Shown here: one piece after another, positions 3,005 through 48,556 of the stretch
Layout: each line of letters opens with the position of its first letter
Numbering within the stretch: position 1 is the first letter of the stretch
DNA from: Alphaproteobacteria bacterium
Lineage (GTDB): Bacteria > Pseudomonadota > Alphaproteobacteria > JAGOMX01
Length of the DNA: 64,000 bases
Assembly (NCBI GenBank): GCA_017993335.1
Contig: JAGOMX010000004.1
Coordinates: 1,185 to 65,184 of the forward strand
Direction: 5' to 3'
Notes under the pieces: model-generated
Seen by the model: only the letters and a program-made list of their open reading frames with translations
The model's database searches: none
Told to the model about the DNA's origin: nothing
Program-made: the position numbers and the translations under genes

Positions 3005-3217
3005 CTACATTTTCCCTGTTATAAAATCTGTTGCTAAAATTTTAACACAGCCAAAATCCCTCGTATAGCCATAGACTGCATATTTTATAAAAAAAAGGGA
3101 TCAGACCGATAAAATTTAAAATAAATGAATTTTTTGTATTTTTTAGTTGGATTTGCCCTCATAGTTTGCTAGTAAGGAGTGTATTGAAGCTTAACTTATG
3201 CTTCTGTTTTTTGCATT

Positions 3218-3302
3218 GCGGGCGTGGTGAAATTGGTAGACACGCAAGATTTAGGTTCTTGTGGCTTAGGCTGTGGGGGTTCAAGTCCCTTCGCCCGCAC
3301 CA
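3218..3302 (+). tRNA. tRNA-Leu (anticodon UAG), type II with long variable arm, CCA encoded
   Basis: Acceptor stem GCGGGCG/CGCCCGC. Anticodon stem CAAGA/TCTTG with loop TTTAGGT, giving anticodon TAG. Long variable arm. T-arm GGGGGTTCAAGTCCC. Discriminator A followed by CCA. Confidence 0.85.
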
Positions 3303-3336
3303 AATTTTTAAAAAAATATTAGGAAGGGCATCCCTT

Positions 3337-4680
3337 ATGAAAGTCCTCACGGAATCATCCAAAGATTTACGATATGAATTTAAGATTGAAATAGCTTCTC
3401 AAGATATTGAGGCTGAGGTTGAACAATCCCTTATTAAATACGGAAAGACGGCGAAGTTGCCAGGCTTTAGACCTGGGAAGATTCCTCTTTCTGTGCTGCG
3501 TCAAAAATTTGATGAAGGGGCACGTCAGGATGCGATTAATGCGGCTGTTAAACAGTCTGTGGGTGAAGTGCTGAAAGAAAAATCATTACAGCCCGCTTCT
3601 AGTCCTAAGATTGAGTTATCTACCTATAATAAAGGGGATGACCTGGTCTATACGATGGAAATTGAAGTGTTGCCATCCTTTGAGATTCAGGATTACACCG
3701 GTATTAAGGTCACAAAATTGGCTGTTAAATTGACAGACAAGGATGTGGACGATCATTTGATTAAATTGCTAGAGCATCAAAAGCGGACTGTTAAAGTTGA
3801 GGCGGATCGCAAATCGCAAAAAGGTGATACGGTTGTTATTGATGCGACGGCTTCTAATCCTGATTTTGATGCCAGTGAACAGGGCTTTGAGTCTTTTCAT
3901 TTGTTGTTAGGCAATAATCATCTGGAAACCTTTGATGAGAAGTTGGTCGGAAAAAAAGTTGGCGATGTGGTGGATATTGAATTTACCCTGCCGGAAAATT
4001 TCCCTAACAAGCCGTTTGCGGGCAAGACTTTAAATTATCACACAACCATTAAAGAAATTCGTGAGCCAATTAAGCCAGAAATTACGGAAGAGATTGCGAA
4101 GGAATTTGGGTTTGAGAATTTAGAAGCCTTGCGTAAAGAGGCTCGCGATCAATTGCAGCAATCCACAACGCGGCCTTCCTTCTTATATGCGAAGCGTCAA
4201 ATCTTGGATAGCTTATCCAAGCAATATAGCTTCCAATTGCCGCAGACCTTGTTAGACCATGAGTTTAAGGCGATTTGGGAAGATGTCGAAGCGGAAATGA
4301 AGCATGAGACGGAAACAGAAGGCAAACCTCAGCCTTCGGACAAAGAAATCGAAGCCATGAAAAAGAAATACTTAAATCTGGCTGAGCGTCGTGTTCGTTT
4401 AGGTCTTGTTTTGTCTGAAATTTCTAAAAAGCATGAAATTTCCGTGCCAAAAGAAAAAATTGCACAGGCTGTAATGCAGGCTGCAAAGCAGCACAAGGGA
4501 TACGAGAAAGAGGCTTTTGAGTACTACTTTAAAAACCCAGAAGCCAATGCGCAAATACGTGCGCCTTTGTTGGAAGACGAAGTTATGCATTTCTTGTTGG
4601 ATAAACTAAAAACAACAGAAAAAGAGCTAGACCTAGACGCCTTTAAAAAGGAACTAGAAACGCTTTCAGACGAAGGTTAA
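3337..4680 (+). CDS. tig: trigger factor (ribosome-associated chaperone / PPIase)
   Basis: ATG at 3337 is preceded by AGGAAGG. The ORF track begins upstream at 3166, overlapping the tRNA, which is unlikely. 447 aa with the trigger factor N-terminus MKVLTESSKDLRYEFKIEI...GFRPGKIP. Confidence 0.9.
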   Translation: MKVLTESSKDLRYEFKIEIASQDIEAEVEQSLIKYGKTAKLPGFRPGKIPLSVLRQKFDEGARQDAINAAVKQSVGEVLKEKSLQPASSPKIELSTYNKGDDLVYTMEIEVLPSFEIQDYTGIKVTKLAVKLTDKDVDDHLIKLLEHQKRTVKVEADRKSQKGDTVVIDATASNPDFDASEQGFESFHLLLGNNHLETFDEKLVGKKVGDVVDIEFTLPENFPNKPFAGKTLNYHTTIKEIREPIKPEITEEIAKEFGFENLEALRKEARDQLQQSTTRPSFLYAKRQILDSLSKQYSFQLPQTLLDHEFKAIWEDVEAEMKHETETEGKPQPSDKEIEAMKKKYLNLAERRVRLGLVLSEISKKHEISVPKEKIAQAVMQAAKQHKGYEKEAFEYYFKNPEANAQIRAPLLEDEVMHFLLDKLKTTEKELDLDAFKKELETLSDEG

Positions 4681-5057
4681 GAGATTCTCAAAACTCGATG
4701 AAGCTCTTGGATTCGCCTCTCCCCTTTGTGGGAGAGGCCGTCCGCAGGGCGGGTTCGGCCGTAAGGCCAGGTGGGTTTTCAGTCTCTCACCCTTTCGCTT
4801 TCCTACGGGGCTCTCCCACAAGGGGGGGGATGAAGTCAGGGTCGCCCATGAAAAAACATATCACCAGAACCTGTCCAACTAATTCCAGAAAACAACTGAT
4901 ACCATTTACCCTAACAGGGCCTACGCATGAAAAATTAAAGAGAGGAAGATCCATCCACACCTGTCACACCTGCCTTCGCAGGTATGACAGGTACTTGTAA
5001 CTGTTTTGTGCAATTTTCATGCGCAGGTCCTGTTTACCCTAAATAAACATCATACCA

Positions 5058-5377
5058 CCCCGTCATGCTGAGCGCGGCTCCGCGCAAGCGGAGTTAGCGA
5101 AGCATCCAGGACTATAAGTGCCGCGATGGCGGCTCTTTATAATCTATATAGAGCCAGAGGCCATTTCAAAACTGGCTTTTTTGGAGGGATTTATAGGAAA
5201 GGTGAGAACCGGAGCGCAGCGTACCTCTTCGTACGTGAGCACCGGGAGCGGAACCTTGACGACGAAATCACCCAAAAAAGACGTTTTGAAATGGCCTCAG
5301 CCACTAAAGTGGCACTTGTGTGCCTGGATCCTTCTCTCACTCAGCTAACGCTGAGCTTCGATCAGGATGACGGGGGT
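5058..5377 (+). repeat. P1-family palindromic element (about 173 bp native), copy P1a, interrupted by a 142-bp MITE insertion
   Basis: cccgtcatgctgagcgcggctccgcgcaagcggagttagcgaagcatccaggactataagtgccgcga...gacggggg. Collinear with the copy at 7758-7928 except for the inserted 142 bp plus 5 bp. Confidence 0.65.
5157..5298 (+). mobile_element. MITE-like non-autonomous element: 142 bp, 16-bp terminal inverted repeats GAGGCCATTTCAAAAC, 5-bp target-site duplication AGCCA
   Basis: The ends gaggccatttcaaaac ... gttttgaaatggcctc are perfect reverse complements. They are flanked by AGCCA (5152-5156) and AGCCA (5299-5303). The uninterrupted site gagccactaaag exists in the paralogous repeat at about 7848. 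A second copy is at 54547-54688 in reverse orientation. Confidence 0.7.
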
Positions 5378-5613
5378 TATGATACTTATTTATGATAAAC
5401 GGTATCAGTTATTTCATGGGATTGGTATGACAGGTGTGGGTGGTCGCTCCTCTCTTAAATTTTTCATGCGTATGTCCTGTATTTTTCGTAAAAAAGCTTG
5501 AATAATTGTATGCGACATCCTATGTGTGATAGAGATGAGCTTTTCCATGTCTAACAGTTAGCAAGGTTAAGGCCGATAATTTTTGTCAATTGTTAAGATA
5601 GAAAGTAATTGTT

Positions 5614-7644
5614 ATGGTGGTTTCTTATAAAAATTTGAGCACAGCGATGCTTTCCGTATTGTTGTTAACGTCTCCATCCTTTGGATCGGCGGAGGGTAGT
5701 GAACCTGACTTGAAAAAGGCGAGGGTTTCTCCTGGTTCGGATGATTTTGATTGGATGTCTTTGGTTGAGGTAAAAAAAGAACCAACCGATGAAAGGCGTG
5801 ATGCGGGTGTTGACCTGTTTTTGCTGACTCATGAGGGGATTAAAAATAATTTAAGACGAATTAATCCGGTTGATCCGGTTTTAAAGAGAAAACCAACGGC
5901 GAATTGCTTGCTTTGTTGTGTTTCGTTTTTGAATTGGGTTAAGACGGGTGTATTGACGCCGGCTCCGGCGGTGACTCCGGATAAACCCAATATTTTGATT
6001 CGCCCGAAAAATGCCGTGCTTTTAGATCAAGATGCGGCAAAAGCCATTCCTGGCCATGCGGTGGAAATTATTATTGAAGATGTGCAAGAAAAAACAGTGG
6101 CAGATCTAGATGTTATCGCTGTGGTAGAGCGAGATGGCCGCAAAATAATTTCGTTTGATCCTTGCGCGATGTCTGATTTAGAAAAGACTCTAGCGGATTT
6201 GCATTTGCATCCGGTTCGCGGCGGGGATTGTGCTTCAGGTCTTATGAGCCTGGGGTATAAGCCTGAATACATGGACAAGGTCGTTACGGAGGCTGGCATT
6301 ACCGGGCACTTTCTGAATTTTTATATGTATAGCGATGCTTCGGGATTCAGAAAAACATACATTGTGGATCCGCAGACTTCGGAAATCACGACCTTGGCAA
6401 ATTTCATAAAAAAAGAATCGAAGTATGATTTAGATACCGTGTACCTATGGTGGGATAGTACGAAAAAAGCCTGGGCTGAGCCTATTTCTTACGTCAAAAA
6501 AGAACCGGTCGCAGCAGAGGTTCCAGAAGATATTCTAACGGATGCCGATCCCAATCCCAGAAAAAGATCCGCAGAAATACCCCTGGAAGAATTGCAAAGC
6601 AATGACGCTCAAAAAAAACCTGCCATAGATGATTTTGAAGAGAACGATCGTATACTTGCGACATTTGCATGGAAAGATAAAGATAATCTTCTAGGGGATC
6701 TAGATCGTTTCTTAACCCAGGCGTTTAATCTGAATCAGCAGCAACAGTCTTTTTGGGTCATGGATATGTCCTTAAAAGGCAGTATCTACGCACAATCGAT
6801 ACTAAGCTGGATGTATTTTTATGGAAAAATATCTGGTGCTAGTGATTATACTTCCGCAGTATTTTATGCAAGAAAATCCGCCGATCAGGGGTATGCTCCA
6901 GCGCAATGTGGTTTGGGGTTTTTATATTCAAACGGCCATGTAGACGGCCAAGTGAATGGGGTCGAGGCTTTCAATTGGTATAAAAAAGCCGCCGATCAGG
7001 GGTATGCTCCAGCGCAATGTGGTTTGGGGTTTTTATATTCAAACGGCCATGTAGACGGCCAAGTGAATGGGGTCGAGGCTTTCAATTGGTATAAAAAATC
7101 CGCCGATCAGGGATATGCTACAGCGCAATGTAATTTGGGGAGGTTATATGCAAACGGCCATGTAGACGGCCACGTGAATGGGGTCGAGGCTTTCAAATGG
7201 TACAAAAAAGCCGCCGATCAGGGGCATGTTGCAGCGCAATATGGTTTGGGGTTTTTATATTCAAACGGCCATGTAGATGGCCAAGTGAATTGGGTTGAAG
7301 CTTTCAATTGGTACAAAAAAGCCGCCGATCAGGGGCATGCTACAGCGCAATATAGTTTGGGGGTTTTATATGCAAAAGGCCATGTGGACGGCCAAGTGAA
7401 TAGGGTCGAGGCTTTCAAATGGTGCAAAAAAGCTGCAGATCAAAATTATGCTGTCGCACAAGATGCTCTGGGGGATATATATGCCAATGGTTATCTTGGT
7501 AAAAAAAATTTAGAAGAGGCTTTAAAATGGTACAACAAAGCTTATTTACAGCAGAGAGATTTAGTTGAGCAAAAAATAATTGAGGTTAGGAAACAGATGG
7601 GGAAAATAAGGGCTTATAACTTGCTATTTCGCAATTCTCTCTGA
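5614..7644 (+). CDS. Sel1-like repeat (SLR) protein with N-terminal signal peptide and a unique N-terminal domain of about 400 aa; effector-like
   Basis: Signal peptide MVVSYKNLSTAMLSVLLLTSPSFGSA. Six tandem 37-aa repeats AADQGYAPAQCGLGFLYSNGHVDGQVNGVEAFNWYKK fit the Sel1 consensus (A..G...A...LG..Y..G.GV..d...A..WY.KAA). Confidence 0.85.
   Translation: MVVSYKNLSTAMLSVLLLTSPSFGSAEGSEPDLKKARVSPGSDDFDWMSLVEVKKEPTDERRDAGVDLFLLTHEGIKNNLRRINPVDPVLKRKPTANCLLCCVSFLNWVKTGVLTPAPAVTPDKPNILIRPKNAVLLDQDAAKAIPGHAVEIIIEDVQEKTVADLDVIAVVERDGRKIISFDPCAMSDLEKTLADLHLHPVRGGDCASGLMSLGYKPEYMDKVVTEAGITGHFLNFYMYSDASGFRKTYIVDPQTSEITTLANFIKKESKYDLDTVYLWWDSTKKAWAEPISYVKKEPVAAEVPEDILTDADPNPRKRSAEIPLEELQSNDAQKKPAIDDFEENDRILATFAWKDKDNLLGDLDRFLTQAFNLNQQQQSFWVMDMSLKGSIYAQSILSWMYFYGKISGASDYTSAVFYARKSADQGYAPAQCGLGFLYSNGHVDGQVNGVEAFNWYKKAADQGYAPAQCGLGFLYSNGHVDGQVNGVEAFNWYKKSADQGYATAQCNLGRLYANGHVDGHVNGVEAFKWYKKAADQGHVAAQYGLGFLYSNGHVDGQVNWVEAFNWYKKAADQGHATAQYSLGVLYAKGHVDGQVNRVEAFKWCKKAADQNYAVAQDALGDIYANGYLGKKNLEEALKWYNKAYLQQRDLVEQKIIEVRKQMGKIRAYNLLFRNSL
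6880..7545 (+). repeat. Six tandem 111-bp coding repeats (Sel1 units); the first two are near-identical at the nucleotide level
   Basis: Units start at about 6880, 6991, 7102, 7213, 7324 and 7435. Units 1 and 2 differ by about 1 nt. Confidence 0.8.
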
Positions 7645-7757
7645 GGACGAAGTTTGTTCCCTGGCGGAGGGGTTACAAATGAGGGTTGAGGAGGTTTAAG
7701 GCAGTCTCTATTGGTATGTTTATGCCGTTTACCCTAAACTAAGTATTATTACCCACT

Positions 7758-7928
7758 CCCGTCATGCTGAGCGCGGCTCCGCGCAAGCGGAGTTAGCGAA
7801 GCATCCAGGACTATAAGTGCCGCGAAAGCGGCTCTTTATAATCTATATAGAGCCACTAAAGTGGCACTTGTGTGCCTGGATCTTTCGCTTACTCCGCTGA
7901 CGCGGAGCTGCGTTCAAAATGACGGGGG
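7758..7928 (+). repeat. P1-family palindromic element, copy P1b (intact, 171 bp)
   Basis: The left half cccgtcatgctgagcgcggctccgcgcaagcggagttagcgaag is the approximate reverse complement of the right half ctttcgcttactccgctgacgcggagctgcgttcaaaatgacggg. It contains the intact MITE target sequence gagccactaaagtggcac. Confidence 0.65.
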
Positions 7929-7949
7929 TATGATGCTTAATTTATTGTA

Positions 7950-13392: not shown

Positions 13393-14652
13393 CTATAAAG
13401 TTAAGGCTAGTCTCAAATCATTGTGTTCAAAGGCAGATGACATGCGATCTGCCTCGCGGTCTTTCATGCCTAGTAACTTTGCCTGCTCTCTCCATCCTGC
13501 CACCGCAATTCCAGCCTCATTTGCTATTCTTTTGGCAGATTCTTTTGAGAGGCCAAATCTATCTGATACGCTCAAGGCAAGTTCTAATGAAGCGCAGTCG
13601 TCTTCTTCATCTATTGCTAAAGAGAGGCGCCTGGGTTTTATATCCAAGGGGGTGGGGTTAATGTCATATGCGGGTGATAGTCTCCATCCATCTGAATTGG
13701 GTAACAAAAGCCCATGATTTCTCAAATGATCATCAGTGTTAGACACTAGAATGGAAAAAACGATTCTTTTCCAGAGCTCGATCAAGTCTTGCTGAGGGTT
13801 TCCACTATAACGACGCAATGCATCTGCTACCTCAAGATAGCTATGGGGATCGTTGTCGCCAGCTTCTAGAAGGCTCATAGCCGAGATAAATGGTATTCGT
13901 TTAACGCCAATGCGATCAAACCTGTTAAGTAATATGACCGAACGACCAGCAATTTTTAACAATTTATGACGTGTGACTCGCAGGCCTGCCTTAGATGCAA
14001 GGGTCAATGCAAGACTTTCCCAAGCTGGCAGGTCTATGTTATCTTCCGGATGAGGAAACTTTGCTATCAATAACTCCCCTTCTTTTGAACGCACGGAGGC
14101 CTTTGGTCTGGCCCCACCCAAAGAAGAGCCTGGCGCTAATAGCAGTCTCATCTCTTCATCATTTTCTTCCTCTTTTATAGCATGGGTGGTGGCCACAAGC
14201 AGGCGAGGTAAATCAATTAATAGAGGCACACGTTTTCCATTGACGGGTTGCGCTAAAAAAGCTCCCTCTAGTTTTTCCGAAAATCTTAGCGCTCCTTGCC
14301 GACATTCATCATCAACATTCAACAAAAAGTCTATCTCTTGAAGGGTGTGCGGGTTTTCACCTTTAGTCTTGGCTAGTCTCTGATGGGTTCGCCTCATGAG
14401 TGTTCTGCCCCAACGGTCTGGAGCTGAATCACCAATTGAGCCGAACAAAGCTCTGCCTTGTCCAGTATGAAATGGAGCTGGGTGCAAAGTTAATGCCGGC
14501 TCTAAGGCGAAGCGTGAAGGATTAGTTAGCCAGCTAGAGTCGTATTCAAAACTCGAACTTTCACGACCTTTCCGGTTTCTCGCAAAAAGACGCCCTACAA
14601 AGAAAGTGTTTCCTTCCCAATCCACATAGACAAATGCAATTTTGTCTGTCAC
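13393..14652 (-). CDS. hipA: type II toxin HipA-family serine/threonine kinase
   Basis: HipA N-terminal coupling domain (VYVDWEGNTFFVGRL), SLGGARPKASV motif and catalytic TDDHLRNHGLLL motif. The GTG start overlaps the hipB stop (GTGA). Confidence 0.85.
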   Translation of the reverse strand: MTDKIAFVYVDWEGNTFFVGRLFARNRKGRESSSFEYDSSWLTNPSRFALEPALTLHPAPFHTGQGRALFGSIGDSAPDRWGRTLMRRTHQRLAKTKGENPHTLQEIDFLLNVDDECRQGALRFSEKLEGAFLAQPVNGKRVPLLIDLPRLLVATTHAIKEEENDEEMRLLLAPGSSLGGARPKASVRSKEGELLIAKFPHPEDNIDLPAWESLALTLASKAGLRVTRHKLLKIAGRSVILLNRFDRIGVKRIPFISAMSLLEAGDNDPHSYLEVADALRRYSGNPQQDLIELWKRIVFSILVSNTDDHLRNHGLLLPNSDGWRLSPAYDINPTPLDIKPRRLSLAIDEEDDCASLELALSVSDRFGLSKESAKRIANEAGIAVAGWREQAKLLGMKDREADRMSSAFEHNDLRLALTL

Positions 14653-18967: not shown

Positions 18968-19080
18968 TACCAATTCCATAAAATAACTGATAAATCTTAC
19001 CCTCGCTGCCTGCGCAGGTATGACAGGCAATGGTTGAGGAGATTCAAGACAGCCTCTATCTGTATGCTTATACTAATTCC
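18968..19080 (+). repeat. Family-A element, internally deleted copy A2
   Basis: ccaattccataaaataactgataaatcttaccctcg fused to ctgcctgcgcaggtatgacaggcaatggttgaggagattcaagacagcctctat. Lies immediately 3' of tatD. Confidence 0.6.
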
Positions 19081-19121: not shown

Positions 19122-20078
19122 TTATGATTTTGGTTCAAAACAAAAACGACATTTCATCATAAGAAGAATCCCCCCCGCCTGCCTCATCGGCAACTGCCTC
19201 CAACCGGTACCTGCATCCGGATGCCGCCGCACTTTTTTATGCTCATATATATTGAAAATAGGGGTTTCGTTCATCTCGCCAAATCTCAAGATCGTATAAT
19301 TGAACCCCCAGGTGGTAATATCATCCCCACCATACCTACTAAGCATACAAACCGCCTTCTGCGATAAATCTGCTTCGGAGACGTTCCGTAGAAATGCAGG
19401 ATGGGTGGATATCTGCTCAGCAATACGTTTCAATTCACTCAACGTCAGAAGAAGAAGAATAGTTTTTTCAGTATTGGGATAAACCGGATTTAGAAATTTT
19501 TCTGTCATCCTCGTGACACACAGATCTGAAGGGATAGTCTTTGGCAGAATGAGCTCACCATTGGTCGTGTCCATATACATATCTGATAATTGGACATCAA
19601 TTACAGTTAAGCCTCCAGGTTCATAGCGGAAAATGCCGTTTTTTAGGGTTCTCTCATCCTGCTCCATCATTCGCAGCCTCAGATATGGCTCCGGGCTTTC
19701 CGGGGGTATAGGCCTACCAAATTTTATAGCTGGGAGAATAATTTCCCTTACATAATTAAGATTATCGGAGCCTAAGAAAAAGCGACACCAAGATTTACAA
19801 ACCAAGGCATAATCTGAGGTCAGTTTTTGCGCCAAAAATCGATTGGCAATAGTTTTTTTTATGTCCAACGGTATTCCAGGAAAAAATTCTTCATGCAAAA
19901 TGCGTGCAGATGAAGATTCTTCCGGTACCTCCATGTTAGCCAAAGCGAGGCGATGAACGGATGGAGACTCAAGTTCCAGAGGGGGCAGTCCATCTTCACT
20001 TGCAAGTACATTAAAATACCCTGCACTTAAGATCATGAGACTTGTGATTATCGCTAATTTCTTTGTAAACTTAATCAT
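19122..20078 (-). CDS. secreted hypothetical protein with an F-box-like motif
   Basis: Signal peptide MIKFTKKLAIITSLMILSAGYFNVLA. Residues about 68-100, IPLDIKKTIANRFLAQKLTSDYALVCKSWCRFF, match the F-box consensus LPxEIlxxIlxxLxxxxLxxxxxVCKxWxxl in spacing and key residues. Confidence 0.6.
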   Translation of the reverse strand: MIKFTKKLAIITSLMILSAGYFNVLASEDGLPPLELESPSVHRLALANMEVPEESSSARILHEEFFPGIPLDIKKTIANRFLAQKLTSDYALVCKSWCRFFLGSDNLNYVREIILPAIKFGRPIPPESPEPYLRLRMMEQDERTLKNGIFRYEPGGLTVIDVQLSDMYMDTTNGELILPKTIPSDLCVTRMTEKFLNPVYPNTEKTILLLLTLSELKRIAEQISTHPAFLRNVSEADLSQKAVCMLSRYGGDDITTWGFNYTILRFGEMNETPIFNIYEHKKVRRHPDAGTGWRQLPMRQAGGILLMMKCRFCFEPKS

Positions 20079-20119: not shown

Positions 20120-20376
20120 GGAATTATACCAGATCCTATAATTAAGTATACAGATAGATGCTGTCTTAAATCTCCTCAACCATCGTCTGTCATACCTGCG
20201 CAGGCAGGTATCCAGCGCAACATGTGCCTCGAAGAGGCTCCATATTTCCTTGCTTCTGTGGCATTGAAATAAATGGAGAGCTGCTGTGCAGCACTTTGTT
20301 GTGCTGGATTCCCGCCTTCGCGGGAATGACAGGCGGCGAGGGTAAGATTTATCCGTTATTTTATGGAATTGGTATT
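20120..20376 (-). repeat. Family-A element, copy A3, in inverse orientation to A1
   Basis: Its reverse complement aligns with 117-321 across the full length, including both hairpin modules. Confidence 0.7.
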
Positions 20377-39363: not shown

Positions 39364-41577
39364 ATGACTCTATTCAAAATAACACGTAATTTATTTGCAG
39401 CTTTAATGTTTTTATGTGCATCTGTGCATGCCTCTAATCCCAGTGAACGTGCCGAGATTTTGTTTAGAATTTGTTGCGGGGATTTGACGATAGAGTCTGC
39501 CTATTCAGAGGAAAAATATAAGGATTTTAATATGTGTGTTAAAAATCTGGAAAGAAATATAAAGATTTTATCGTCTCCTGATGCAGATATGGGTATGAAA
39601 ATGGGGATGGCTAATCTTCTTTGTAAGGATCCAAGATTCTGCCATAAAAAAGAATACAAACAAATTGGGTTAAGATTTTTTGAAGAGTTGTCACTGTTGG
39701 GGAAGTATTCAGATGCCCAGTATATGTTCAGTTTCTTTCTATTAAAAGAAGATGATCCAGAATGTGTGAAAAAAGGATTGAAGTGGCTTGAAATATCTGC
39801 AAATGCTGGTGAGACTATGGCCATGAATGGTATGGCTTTGAATCTTCTTAATTCTACGTGGTGTGAGGATACGTTAGAAAATAAAAAGAAGGGAATGGCG
39901 TGGCTTGAAAAAGCTGCAAAATTAGGTTGTCCAGCTTCTCAATCTACTTTAGGGCGCTATATGGTGAGGGGGATGTATGTTGATAATACAAAAGAAAACA
40001 AAAAAAAGGGTATCGAATGGCTTGAAAAGGCTGCCGAGGCCGGTATAGTTTACGCCATGAATGATCTAGGTGTGTTCCTTATTCAATCAGGAGAAGAACA
40101 GAAAAAAGGTATAGAGTGGATAATGAAGGCTGCAGATTTAGGTCATGCGGTTTCTATGTCGAATCTTGGTCTTTTAATGATAAAAAATAAGTATTTTAAA
40201 GATACGAAAGAAAACAAGAAAAAGGCTGTGGAATGGCTTGAAAAGGCTGCAAATGCAGGCGTAATTTCCTCTATGAATGAACTAGGCAAGGCTCTTGTGG
40301 GGGCTATAGGCTGTGAAAATACACCGGAAAATAAGAGAAAGGGAATTGAGGTATTTATAAAAGCTTCCGATGGGGGAGATGCTGTATCCTCTTTTCAAAT
40401 TGCGTATTTTTACTTCACGGGAATGTCTGTGCTAGAGAAGGATTTCCAGAAAGCTATATATTATTTTGAGAGGGCAAATGATAAATATCTTGCGGACGAT
40501 TATATGGGGTTTTGTTATTTAAAGTTGTCTGAATACAGAAAATCCTTGAAACACTATGAGCTTGCGAGAAGAAGAGGAGCATTTGTATCGGATGCAATGA
40601 TTAAATACTTAGAATCTAAAGCGAATCCTCAATTTCAGGACCGTAAAAAATCTAAAAACAACAGTAAATCTAGAACAATTCAGGGAATTCAGAGCGATCT
40701 AGATCAACAAAAAATTCAGTTGCTGCAGCAGTATGATTCGGTTTCTACCCAATTAAAAAAACTGGAAGAGCTGAAGGTAAAAAATAACTATAAGTCGGAT
40801 GCGGGCGATGAGGTCTCTGCAGAGGAGTTAAAAAAGTATAGGGATGATTTTGTAAAAAATCATAAATCTACTTTAGCCAATAAACAGGAAAATATATCCT
40901 TGTTTCAAGATTATCTGATGAATATAAAAGATAAAATTTTTCACCAAAACCAAGCTTTGAGCATAAGCATAAGAATGGAAAATCAGAGAAAAACCATCCA
41001 GGATCATTATGATGCTTTTGGTGTGCTGTCTGTAGATGAAGAATCTAGAGAAGCAAAAGCATCGGCTAAGAAAAATGCACAACTGGTTTTGGATCAAGAA
41101 AAAGAAAAGGCGCACGCCAAACATAATAAATCTAATGCAAAGAAAAAAAAGAAGAAGTCAAAAAAAACGGTGCCGATAGCAACGCAAGCGGAAACAAAAG
41201 CAATCGGACCATTCTCCGATACTCGTTTGATCGTCAAAACAGAAGCTGATATACCAGAGGCGGCTATGCAGAAAGCTTATACAATTCTGAACGGAATTCG
41301 GGATTCCCGCACGATAGATGAGGTTGTCAATAAGTTGAAATCTCTGGATATCAAGGTAGACATAAAAAAAATATCATCAGACTACGCCGGTTGCCCAGAG
41401 GCTGATGTGGTTTATGAGGCGAGAATCAACAACCAATATCGTGTGATTATTCCCTTTATCCATGTGAAAAATGAGGCTATTGCTAATGACAATAATAATC
41501 GCACACCAGAATCCGATGTCACAACTTTAATATATCAAAGCGAAATATACATCTGCGATCCCCATGTGAAGCAATGA
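39364..41577 (+). CDS. Sel1-like repeat protein with signal peptide, Lys-rich coiled-coil segment and a unique C-terminal domain; effector-like
   Basis: Signal peptide MTLFKITRNLFAALMFLCASVHA. Repeats KKKGIEWLEKAAEAGIVYAMNDLGVFL, KKKAVEWLEKAANAGVISSMNELGKAL and others. A K-rich tract KKKKKKSKK. Confidence 0.8.
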   Translation: MTLFKITRNLFAALMFLCASVHASNPSERAEILFRICCGDLTIESAYSEEKYKDFNMCVKNLERNIKILSSPDADMGMKMGMANLLCKDPRFCHKKEYKQIGLRFFEELSLLGKYSDAQYMFSFFLLKEDDPECVKKGLKWLEISANAGETMAMNGMALNLLNSTWCEDTLENKKKGMAWLEKAAKLGCPASQSTLGRYMVRGMYVDNTKENKKKGIEWLEKAAEAGIVYAMNDLGVFLIQSGEEQKKGIEWIMKAADLGHAVSMSNLGLLMIKNKYFKDTKENKKKAVEWLEKAANAGVISSMNELGKALVGAIGCENTPENKRKGIEVFIKASDGGDAVSSFQIAYFYFTGMSVLEKDFQKAIYYFERANDKYLADDYMGFCYLKLSEYRKSLKHYELARRRGAFVSDAMIKYLESKANPQFQDRKKSKNNSKSRTIQGIQSDLDQQKIQLLQQYDSVSTQLKKLEELKVKNNYKSDAGDEVSAEELKKYRDDFVKNHKSTLANKQENISLFQDYLMNIKDKIFHQNQALSISIRMENQRKTIQDHYDAFGVLSVDEESREAKASAKKNAQLVLDQEKEKAHAKHNKSNAKKKKKKSKKTVPIATQAETKAIGPFSDTRLIVKTEADIPEAAMQKAYTILNGIRDSRTIDEVVNKLKSLDIKVDIKKISSDYAGCPEADVVYEARINNQYRVIIPFIHVKNEAIANDNNNRTPESDVTTLIYQSEIYICDPHVKQ

Positions 41578-45253: not shown

Positions 45254-46543
45254 ATGTCGAATCCTTTTTTTGCCGTCTTTGTCGTCATGGTTTTTGTGGC
45301 GAATATTTCTCGTTCTTATGCCTCTGATTTGCCTGAATCGTTACCCTCGCAACATTCTTATTCATCTATGTTATTTCGTCCGTTCAATGCGGTGTTGGAT
45401 GTGGTTTGTGCGCCTTTGCATTTTATGTCCACGAAGAGTTACGCGGAGCAACTGGAGGATAAATTCAAAACCATATCGAAAGTTCTCCATAAAAAAGTTA
45501 TTTCACCGGAACTTAAAGTAGATGTTTTGCATGATCTTGAATCCTGTGCTTCTGCAGGGCATCCGCAGGCTATGTATGTGTTTGGCTCTTTATTGTTAGG
45601 TTGCCCTGCAGAGCCCTATAATGCCCTAGAAGCCCTTATTGAACGGGATCGAGATTTGGGTTTTCAATATGTAGATGCGGCTGCGAATAAAGGGAGCGCG
45701 GAGGCAATAAGTTTACGGCAGCAATGTTGGGGCGCTACGAAGTTAGAATCTTTAGTAAACGATAGTTTGGAAGTGGCCAGCGATGAGGAAAAACAGAAGT
45801 TTGCAGCTCGTGTGACCGAAGAAATGCCGGAGCTCGTGCGCGTTAATCCTCATGCGGCCTTTTATTGCTGTGATGCCATTTTAAATAAAGAAAAATCGGC
45901 TTATCCGTGGATGTCCAGTTCATCATTATCCTTGCTGGATCAACGAACGATTATGAGTCCTTTATTGAAATTCGCTGTTAAAAATAATGTTTTAGAAGCC
46001 AGGCGGTTAATGTATTTTCTGGAGCAAGAAGACGCGGTTTATGTCCGTGTCTGTGAATCCATCATGAAAAATCCAGAGAAAATCATCAAAGGTTTGAGTA
46101 TGTGGGATCCAGGATATTTGCAAGAGCATATTAGTTTTCTTGTGGAACAAACCATTGAGGAAAGAGGGTATGTCTTAACGAAAGAATATGCCCTGTTTAT
46201 AAAGTCCGTTATGGGGCTTCGTATGAATCAAGTTTTTTACTTTCTCGGGTCGTATTTTAGTTACATCCGAATTTCCCGGGCCACTGAATTTAATGATGGG
46301 GAGATCGGTACTTTGCTGCATGTAATGAGCGTGCGTAAAATGGGGGATCTTCTTGTGGGTAAAACAAATTATTTCTTAGAACCTATCTGGCATAAAGATT
46401 ATGAAAAAGGTCTTTCTGTCGATTTCACCGAACATAAACTGTATTGTGCCGTAACGAAGCTAGATGTGCATTTAGCGTTAGGGATGTTATTGGATTTTGA
46501 AGATCATCCTTTTCCGGAGGTAGCTAACCTGGTGATGGAATAA
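45254..46543 (+). CDS. secreted hypothetical protein (429 aa) with a single possible Sel1-like unit
   Basis: Signal peptide MSNPFFAVFVVMVFVANISRSYA. CASAGHPQAMYVFGSLLLG resembles a Sel1 repeat. Confidence 0.6.
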   Translation: MSNPFFAVFVVMVFVANISRSYASDLPESLPSQHSYSSMLFRPFNAVLDVVCAPLHFMSTKSYAEQLEDKFKTISKVLHKKVISPELKVDVLHDLESCASAGHPQAMYVFGSLLLGCPAEPYNALEALIERDRDLGFQYVDAAANKGSAEAISLRQQCWGATKLESLVNDSLEVASDEEKQKFAARVTEEMPELVRVNPHAAFYCCDAILNKEKSAYPWMSSSSLSLLDQRTIMSPLLKFAVKNNVLEARRLMYFLEQEDAVYVRVCESIMKNPEKIIKGLSMWDPGYLQEHISFLVEQTIEERGYVLTKEYALFIKSVMGLRMNQVFYFLGSYFSYIRISRATEFNDGEIGTLLHVMSVRKMGDLLVGKTNYFLEPIWHKDYEKGLSVDFTEHKLYCAVTKLDVHLALGMLLDFEDHPFPEVANLVME

Positions 46544-46548
46544 GTTGT

Positions 46549-47850
46549 TTACTCTTCCGGGATGATGTCGGCTGGATCAAATGTGTGCATTAGGCTGATT
46601 TCATTATAGTTCAATGAGTAGGGATCGAATTTATTCTCTGGTTTTTGGTAGAACATTTTTATGGCCATCACGTATGCGGTTACCATTTGATCTAAAAACG
46701 CTTGGATTTCGGATTCAGTGGTTAGTTTTAAGGCTGAACATGCTTCGCGGAATTCATGGTCAAAATGACGGCGGATGACTTCATTTTCATGACGTGCTTT
46801 GCCGATCAGGGCGTTGAGTAGTAACGTCATTTTCTCATCCGAAGTTATGATGCCATCCGATGATTCTTTAGCGTCTAAGGCTTTTTTGAGGTGAGGGTGA
46901 TCTTTAAATATCTCAAGACAGGCTTCTTTTTGCTGCTGGGGTGAGGTGAGTTCTTGAAACAGTTTTTGCAGGACATATTGTGTGCACGATGCGGCTATTT
47001 TTTTTATTTCTGCTGGATCCAAATCCGGAGAGGCTTTCGTAATAAAAGCTTGTAGATCTGATTCTATGCGTTCTGGCTGGATAAATATCTTGCCACGTTG
47101 ATAAGTCGACAACACATTGGCTACGGCGTTAAGACGATGTGTAAAAGGCGAATCTTGCTGTAGGTCACGCATGGTGGCTTCAAAAGAAAAGGCAAAACGA
47201 TGCAAATACTTACCGCCTTTCATGAATGTTTTAGAATCCAGGGGCTCTGGCGTTTCTATTTTATGGATAAAGTAACCTAGTTGCTCGCCTAGGCTGATGA
47301 GGTGCGTAAACGTGTTTGCCTTTGTAAATAAGTCTTTGTGGGTTTCTATAAGGTGCTTCCGTAGTTCATTTATGTTTTGAAACTTATCCGGATTGCCTTT
47401 GCGGAGATAGTCATTGACCATGAGACTGAGCACTTGGGAGATGGGTTGATCTCCGGTTACGATCAGTTGAAAGGCTTCTTGTGTAAAATAGCTCTCTGGA
47501 AAATATGTACCGCGTAGGGCAAAGAGTAGGGCGCTGTGAATTAAAAGGTCATCCTTTTCTTTTGTGGCGGCCTGAATAATGATTTGCATGTCTTTGTTGG
47601 CCAACGGGTCAGAAAAATTCAGTTTTTCTTTAGAAATACTCTGTTGTAGGGCTTCAGCGTTTTTATCCTGACTGAGAATTTGTTGAGACAAGGCCGCAAG
47701 AGATTTAAGGTCCACTAAAGCGTTTAAATCTTTGGGGTCTACGCCGTATTTTATTTTTAGCGTTTGTTCGTCTTGCTGTTCAGCTTTGTGGAGCTCATCT
47801 TCAAACTCTTCAATGCTTTTAATAAGACTTTTAGCTTCAGGGAAAATCAC
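46549..47850 (-). CDS. hypothetical alpha-helical protein (433 aa), no signal peptide, orphan
   Basis: ORF with coherent codon usage and no recognisable motif. Confidence 0.55.
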   Translation of the reverse strand: MIFPEAKSLIKSIEEFEDELHKAEQQDEQTLKIKYGVDPKDLNALVDLKSLAALSQQILSQDKNAEALQQSISKEKLNFSDPLANKDMQIIIQAATKEKDDLLIHSALLFALRGTYFPESYFTQEAFQLIVTGDQPISQVLSLMVNDYLRKGNPDKFQNINELRKHLIETHKDLFTKANTFTHLISLGEQLGYFIHKIETPEPLDSKTFMKGGKYLHRFAFSFEATMRDLQQDSPFTHRLNAVANVLSTYQRGKIFIQPERIESDLQAFITKASPDLDPAEIKKIAASCTQYVLQKLFQELTSPQQQKEACLEIFKDHPHLKKALDAKESSDGIITSDEKMTLLLNALIGKARHENEVIRRHFDHEFREACSALKLTTESEIQAFLDQMVTAYVMAIKMFYQKPENKFDPYSLNYNEISLMHTFDPADIIPEE

Positions 47851-47863
47851 AAGAAACTCATTT

Positions 47864-48556
47864 TTATATTTTTCCCAGGGGAGTACACGAGAATTGTGAA
47901 TGTTCCGAAAAATCTGAAGTTGTCCTAAGGAAAACGCTGTTTTTTTTATATTTTTCCATCGCTTCAGGATTTTCTATGTGTCTCATGGTTTGTAAGGTTG
48001 CCCCTGGGTGTTGGGTGTAAACTTCTTCATCAAAAGCAATGTCAGAGGTGTTTTGATACATGTAGACATGCAGCGTATCCATTAAGATTTTTGCCATGGT
48101 TTCTTGAAAAGCGGATTGTCCTTGCGCCACATTGTCAATGTCCGAATTATACCCCACCGTTCCGGTTACACCCCAACGGACTGGATCTAACGTAAAGGCG
48201 GCTAATGCTGAATTCACGAGTTTTTCTTTAAATGCTTTATCTATTTCACGAAACTCTTGCCACGAATAGGCCGTGCCATGTATCGGGGTGGTCATGCCCA
48301 CATCCAGCTTTTCTTTCAAGGAAATCCACGTGGCTCCGGCTTTAAATTGCTGGAAGGGAATGGGGTGTTTGTTTTTAAATTCATCAATTTGCTGCGTATA
48401 GGTTTGACCCAACATGTCTTCCCATATGCCCCTGGATATTTCATTCAGACTTTGCTGCGTTTCAATAACTTTGAATAATTCCTCTTTGTTCGCAGCAAAT
48501 GCGAATGAAGGTAAAATGCATAAGGTTATGATAATCAATGTTCTATATATATTCAT
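47864..48556 (-). CDS. secreted hypothetical protein (230 aa)
   Basis: Signal peptide MNIYRTLIIITLCILPSFAFA. Has a weak GS-x-DxD-like motif, TGTVGYNSDID. Confidence 0.55.
   Translation of the reverse strand: MNIYRTLIIITLCILPSFAFAANKEELFKVIETQQSLNEISRGIWEDMLGQTYTQQIDEFKNKHPIPFQQFKAGATWISLKEKLDVGMTTPIHGTAYSWQEFREIDKAFKEKLVNSALAAFTLDPVRWGVTGTVGYNSDIDNVAQGQSAFQETMAKILMDTLHVYMYQNTSDIAFDEEVYTQHPGATLQTMRHIENPEAMEKYKKNSVFLRTTSDFSEHSQFSCTPLGKI

Follow-up and report, generated by a model that had tools for sequence, protein, structure and literature searches.

A probable 142-bp MITE with 16-bp terminal inverted repeats and 5-bp target-site duplications, one copy of which interrupts a palindromic repeat in an alphaproteobacterial genome

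MITEs are defined as elements of <500 bp with terminal inverted repeats (TIRs) of ~4–30 bp, flanking direct repeats and no transposase gene, present in multiple dispersed copies and related to an autonomous IS (PMC10969869). MITEAba12 of Acinetobacter is an AT-rich element of 113 bp with 16-bp TIRs, GGCTTTGTTGCACAAA ends and 9-bp target-site duplications (TSDs), the parent of which is ISAba12 (PMC6382973). From Coxiella burnetii, QMITE1 (300–400 bp, 2–4-bp direct repeats) and QMITE2 (150–190 bp, 21–31-bp TIRs, 7–13-bp direct repeats) have been described (PMC5896051). The element analyzed here was found in two copies in a 64-kb stretch of alphaproteobacterial DNA (the window, meaning that whole stretch). 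In line with the definition it is 142 bp long, bounded by 16-bp TIRs, flanked by 5/5 TSDs at both sites and too short for a transposase; no autonomous IS that shares its TIRs and TSD length was found in the window, in the sampled loci of relatives, in plasmids or in viral contigs. The element was interpreted, with a probability of roughly 0.7, as a non-autonomous class II DNA transposon (a MITE) moved in trans by a transposase making 5-bp staggered cuts.

Copy 1 was mapped by alignment and hairpin folding to positions 5157–5298 on the + strand, near the center of a palindromic repeat designated P1. Copy 2 was mapped by alignment to copy 1 to positions 54547–54688 on the – strand, in the region between rpoD and a 4,5-DOPA-dioxygenase-like gene. 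The copies are identical at 139 of their 142 positions (97.9%) and differ at positions 74, 90 and 139 of the element. The 16-bp TIR (GAGGCCATTTCAAAAC / GTTTTGAAATGGCCTC) is perfect in copy 1, where the left repeat occupies 5157–5172 (+) and the right repeat, the same GAGGCCATTTCAAAAC read on the – strand, 5283–5298, each with 0 mismatches. In copy 2 the ends match at 15/16 positions, the single mismatch appearing as GAGACC on the + strand. AGCCA is present on either side of copy 1 (5152–5156 and 5299–5303, +) and ATCAT, as read on the + strand, on either side of copy 2 (54542–54546 and 54689–54693); for each site, a 5/5 flank match is expected by chance with p = 1/1024. When the window was scanned for GAGGCCATTTCAAAAC with ≤3 mismatches, 7 sites were recovered against 1.1 expected, and those with 0–1 mismatch (n = 4) were exactly the four element ends. 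The two copies (n = 2) lie 49 kb apart within the 64 kb. In the alignment of copy 1 with copy 2, similarity ended exactly at the TIR tips and the flanks were unrelated, so the copies are not fragments of a larger duplication. The earlier note, made from the letters of the window, had reported two copies at these positions and on these strands, an inverted repeat perfect in the first and with one mismatch in the second, and a different perfect 5-bp duplication at each site, and all of this was seen again when the sequence was read directly; its concern that the copies might belong to larger duplicated segments was settled in the negative by the same alignment.

The P1 repeat that carries copy 1 (5032–5393, +) is made up of 5032–5156 and 5304–5393, with the insertion at 5157–5303. 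A second, empty P1 (7727–7945, +) retains an uninterrupted AGCCA target at 7851–7855; within it, positions 7758–7929 read tatagAGCCActaaag, with a single AGCCA. After removal in silico of 5157–5303 (the element and one AGCCA), the filled P1 aligned to the empty P1 without gaps across the junction, and from this alignment of the reconstructed site the length of P1 was set at ~220 bp. Copy 1 had earlier been placed inside P1 with an empty paralogue at 7758–7928; the insertion and the empty site stood, while the extent of P1 was corrected to the longer figure. The two P1 copies lie 2.6 kb apart in direct orientation, flanking a Sel1-repeat gene (5614–7644), and P1 was predicted to form a –65 kcal/mol hairpin (z –12). 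What was read directly comprises the structure of the ends, two independent insertions whose TSDs agree in length but not in sequence, and the restored empty site. Taken alone, the empty site fits either length of element, 142 bp with 5 bp of target duplicated or 144 bp with 3 bp duplicated. The 144-bp model was rejected: four extra base coincidences (~1/256) are needed and the tips would differ between the copies. The 5-bp TSD was favored on account of that coincidence, an argument from sequence. Alternative boundaries with TG...CA tips were dropped on parsimony. As judged from the pair of P1 sequences, copy 1 would have entered P1 after P1 was duplicated, or the element would have been precisely excised from the second P1, an event that would also attest to mobility. 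P1-like ends with 84–86% identity were also observed in a relative (L154:864–912).

Intergenic regions of the window were found to be patchworks of repeats, comprising REP-like palindromes, P1 and a 65-nt unit. REP-like palindromes of the form GTCATxCCyGCGnAGGCrGGxATCC were located between genes at 153–194, 20179–20220 and 54331–54372, and also at 4950–5000. Two 65-nt inverted repeats (19006–19070 and 20143–20207, 92% complementary) bracket a 1072-bp segment, and more copies of the 65-nt unit lie at 286–350, 7658–7722 and 54440–54504. The sole long ORF between the inverted repeats (19122–20078, –, 318 aa) matched nothing in Pfam; considered as a candidate transposase, it was rejected for its signal-peptide-like N-terminus and its lack of a transposase signature. 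The 1072-bp segment may have arisen by capture of a gene between a pair of the 65-nt repeats. Within the Sel1-repeat gene at 5614–7644, a 111-bp unit (37 codons) was found repeated ~7.5 times in tandem at 6762–7601, the units being 62–91% identical to the reference copy.

The 142-bp element is an imperfect palindrome over its full length (~70% self-complementary), with a GC content of 50% against ~44% for the window. As DNA, copy 1 folded into one hairpin of –40.4 kcal/mol (z –9.0); RNA folds of the two strands gave –65.3 and –61.1 kcal/mol (z –8.3 and –8.7). According to these folding models, a transcript crossing the element would likely carry a very stable hairpin. None of the differences between the copies disturbs the fold: two affect unpaired positions and one turns a G-C pair into G-U, a result that at n = 3 is not significant. 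Each end of the element holds an outward-facing, –35-like TTGAAA hexamer, the effect of which is likely to be modest. In consensus scans, one promoter-like site touched the element, a hybrid on the – strand with the left-end TTGAAA as –35 and its –10 in P1, and no terminator-like site and no complete promoter-like site were found inside the element. Searches of Rfam returned no match to the element at the gathering threshold or at E ≤ 1. The stable hairpin and the three structure-neutral substitutions would be compatible with an immobile sequence, either a structured-RNA gene or terminator that had been duplicated or what is left of a segmental duplication or a gene conversion. This origin was judged highly improbable, as it is contradicted by flanks that are unrelated up to the TIR tips, by 5-bp duplications at both sites together with an exact empty site, and by the outcome of the Rfam and consensus scans just described.

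Both copies are intergenic. Copy 1 is neighbored by the trigger factor gene and the Sel1-repeat protein gene, and the short ORFs crossing it were taken to be spurious; copy 2 lies in AT-rich intergenic DNA downstream of rpoD. A gene for tRNA-Leu (anticodon TAG, 3218–3302) is located just upstream of trigger factor. The program-called ORF at 3166–4680 runs through this tRNA gene, so the real tig start lies further downstream; trigger-factor homology within the ORF begins at residue 69. Housekeeping genes in the window are acnA, tig, recF, gyrB, dnaB, dnaE, dnaG, rpoD and groEL, and genes for Sel1, ankyrin and LRR proteins are also present. By gyrB, the host was placed among uncultured Alphaproteobacteria, with its next relatives at 80–89% GyrB identity and the nearest named species at ~68%. 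It is an uncultured and probably host-associated alphaproteobacterium. Genes for eukaryote-like repeat proteins (a weak ankyrin match, Sel1 and LRR) and for a HipA-like toxin kinase were noted at 32133–34283, 39364–41577, 48609–49787 and 13393–14652, and their presence would suit life in association with a host. No significant Pfam match was obtained for several ORFs of ≥200 aa, at 30790–31575, 45254–46543, 46549–47850, 47864–48556 and 61531–62133.

Further copies of the element were sought in 185,579 representative genomes (the source MAG not being among them), 241 million metagenome records and 5.8 billion predicted proteins. An exact 28-nt end pattern, which does match the window, gave 0 matches in the representative genomes. 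The element interior was without a match in the representative genomes, the metagenome records, plasmids and Rfam, and the three open frames, translated and concatenated, had no homologue among the predicted proteins. BLAST of the element ends (both end types) against plasmids gave chance-level matches only, and scans of viral contigs gave either nothing or chance matches within one phage lineage. In the searchable literature the end sequence was absent save for one unrelated primer. The window ORFs of at least 150 aa were scanned with NCBIfam and Pfam, and none matched a transposase family. From the closest relatives (GyrB 80–89%), ~94 kb around gyrB was sampled; it held no element copy and no autonomous partner, and synteny with the window was lost upstream of recF-gyrB. 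The earlier suggestion that the element was possibly new is borne out by the searches of genomes, metagenomes, plasmids, Rfam and proteins, and its statement that no transposase partner is present in the window agrees with the scan of the ORFs. Among the collections searched, the family was seen only in this window; judged by sequence comparison, the transposable element itself appears to be new and its kind already known.

Two further observations were made in the relatives sampled around gyrB. A solo site matching the TIR at 15/16 positions, GAGACCATTTCAAAAC, is present at L154:8515–8530 (and also in L155 and L156); the relative concerned has a GyrB identity of 87%. The site carries the variant seen at one end of copy 2, and ~1e-3 such sites would be expected by chance in the DNA sampled. 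An unrelated, GC-rich palindrome of ~120 bp lies 24 nt past it, and no convincing second end was found; the site may be a relic. Downstream of gyrB, a polymorphic 1348-bp IS3-family insertion (HTH_Tnp_1 and rve ORFs) was identified by comparing L154:13234–14581 with L155:11569. It is present in one assembly of a related species and absent from two others, sits in a CCAGAAT/CCAGAAA heptamer tract, and has ends unrelated to those of the window MITE.

Relatives of the ends were searched for with the 12-nt core of both ends as a pair 95–125 bp apart, which gave 67 genome and 85 metagenome loci (152 in all) and, from these, 139 non-redundant elements of 120–150 bp with a hairpin-like organization and subfamilies of ~122, 135 and 136 bp. 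They occur mainly in Desulfobacterales and other deltaproteobacterial MAGs, where there are many copies per genome, and also in gammaproteobacterial, Planctomycetales and other MAGs. The end consensus of the 139 is yTA|GAAGCCATTTCAAAACC, and conservation stops beyond TA; the full layout is TA|GAAGCCATTTCAAAACC...GGTTTTGAAATGGCTTC|TA (e.g., L006:3372–3514 and L018:2234–2363). Identical 2-bp flanks, mostly TA, were found in 98 of the 139, and identical flanks of at least 3 bp in 0/139 at any boundary offset. This pattern fits a 2-bp duplication, mostly of TA within a cTAg-like target. Where distant end pairs in these loci were inspected for an autonomous parent, the enclosed genes were murI, a phosphomannomutase-like gene, genes for membrane proteins and mnmE/mnmG, and no transposase was among them. 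No published description of the TA-flanked family was found, its end sequence being absent from the searchable literature. As a widespread family with near-identical ends and no obvious parent, it may merit separate study.

The window element might be a diverged member of this TA-flanked GAAGCCATTTCAAAACC family, moved by a relative of its transposase, possibly one that is IS5/IS427-like or IS630-like. Some IS5-family groups typically combine Ga/g tips with short duplications. The elements are of similar size, and both have the 12-nt core CCATTTCAAAAC 4 nt from each tip, with tips GA(A/G)G (consensus GAAG in the TA-flanked family and GAGG in the window element). GAGGCCATTTCAAAAC itself occurs at a few ends of the TA-flanked family (L003, L047 and L082), and a subterminal T-run is shared with the 122-bp subfamily (L128, 21/22). 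Against this, the TA-flanked elements have 2-bp flanks (TA, or CG in L101 and L141), whereas the window element has 5-bp TSDs and the bases beside its tips are CA/AG and AT/AT rather than TA. The core is followed by C in 256 of 278 ends of the TA-flanked family and by T or G in the window element. The interiors are unrelated: by blastn, the window element had no match to any of the 152 loci at E ≤ 1e-3, and only terminal matches of 16–24 nt were obtained. The tip of the window element is identical to the GAAGCCATTTCAAAACC consensus at 15/16 positions, a figure that is partly circular since the search was keyed on the shared 12-mer; among conserved end positions that the key left unconstrained, 3 of 5 match, for which the chance is ~10%. 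Because the core was the search key, with 3/5 remaining positions matching, unrelated interiors and a different TSD length, the window element was not filed as a member, and membership was regarded as possible but doubtful. A bolder version, in which the window element and the TA-flanked elements of several phyla form one undescribed superfamily with the end motif GA(A/G)GCCATTTCAAAAC, the stagger having shifted from 2 to 5 bp here, was given little credence. Within one transposase lineage, TSD length does not normally vary. Were the superfamily real, it would represent an unusual natural change of strand-transfer geometry.

One element sharing the end motif lies within an identified gene. At L141:6201–6339 (the same as L101:1533–1671), mnmE carries an in-frame insertion of 139 bp, an element with GGAAGCCATTTCAAAAC ends flanked by CG, which lengthens the product by ~47 residues between the NKxD and SAK motifs. 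On the contig of the L141 insertion, mnmG also carries in-frame palindromic repeats, which encode '...IPAFAGMT...' twice, a behavior like that of RPEs. RPEs are frequently found in frame in genes (PMC10969869). The window element was accordingly weighed as an RPE-like selfish palindromic element, one that spread without a classical IS transposase and was tolerated through in-frame read-through. Its palindromy over the entire length would suit this reading, as would the abundance of other palindromic repeats in the genome of a host-associated alphaproteobacterium with Sel1, ankyrin and LRR proteins, the in-frame mnmE element with the shared end motif on metagenome contigs L101 and L141, and the coding potential of the element, in which 3 of 6 frames are open and which with its TSD measures 147 bp, or 49 codons. 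The reading was nonetheless considered improbable, given that both window copies are intergenic and that sharp TIRs with a TSD fixed at 5 bp mark transposition by staggered cuts. Moreover, only 5 of the 139 elements with the end motif lie in an open frame that continues for ≥40 codons to either side, and the mnmE of L101 and L141 is the only gene identified among these.

The preferred reading, a MITE mobilized in trans, is also that of the earlier note, and it is favored by the small size of the element, its TIRs, TSDs of constant length, unrelated contexts and a nested insertion with its empty site. In the mechanism proposed, a transposase encoded at another site of the genome, or since lost, would bind the 16-bp TIRs GAGGCCATTTCAAAAC; the element ends would be joined to target DNA cut with a 5-bp stagger; and repair of the gaps would leave the 5-bp direct duplications. 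We infer a DDE-type transposase, mobilization in trans and the 5-bp staggered cut. Four points weigh against the MITE reading: the known copies number 2; neither a transposase nor an autonomous partner turned up in the window, in the ~94 kb from the closest relatives or beside similar ends in other genomes; the tip and TSD length together fit no familiar IS family; and the neighbors in end sequence carry 2-bp flanks. The 97.9% identity of the copies and their intact TSDs suggest that the element was recently active. Such transposition would have taken place in an uncultured, probably host-associated alphaproteobacterium with intergenic regions crowded by repeats. Between strains, the two insertions could act as presence/absence markers, and the filled and empty pair with its defined TSD allows a precise search, by TIR plus 5-bp stagger, for the transposase responsible.

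Known systems were compared with the window element by organization. In REPIN/REP-RAYT systems there is no TSD and a RAYT (Y1 transposase) gene is associated; this assignment was rejected, as TSDs are present here and the window ORFs had no Y1_Tnp match. Elements of the IS3 family, IS2 group, make 5-bp TSDs and have TG...CA tips. Derivation from this group was also rejected, the tips being GAGG...CCTC and a one-base extension giving A...A at copy 1; the IS3-family element of relative L154 was set aside as a parent for its unrelated ends. Ends of the Tn3 family are ~38 bp long, start with GGGG and end with TAAG, and the TIMEs and IMUs derived from it make 5-bp TSDs. The TSD length is thus shared with the window element, but the repeat of the latter is 16 bp, starts with GAGG and does not have TAAG at positions 35–38. 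To our knowledge, the combination of a GAGG tip with a 5-bp TSD matches no IS family that can be named.

RPEs of Rickettsia share with the window element a palindromic structure, a size of ~100–150 bp, an alphaproteobacterial genome, and a length and open frames that fit in-frame insertion; they differ in that the window copies are intergenic with clear TIRs and TSDs, a comparison made on organization. QMITE1 and QMITE2 are likewise hairpin-forming MITEs, of an intracellular bacterium, and QMITE2 is a target of insertion, comparable to P1 here. Identity with either had been suggested by the GC content and by the character of the palindromes, and was rejected, since their published dimensions disagree with 142 bp, 16 bp and 5 bp and the host is alphaproteobacterial by gyrB. 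Bacterial MITEs are under-catalogued, and nothing here challenges the current view of transposition. MITEAba12 differs from the window element in its 9-bp TSD and AT-rich composition, against a 5-bp TSD, GAGGCCATTTCAAAAC ends and a GC content of 50%. The two have in common a length of ~110–140 bp, 16-bp TIRs with one mismatch allowed, a non-coding interior, a TSD of fixed length and variable sequence and, as in type II MITEs, a likeness to any parent that is limited to the ends.
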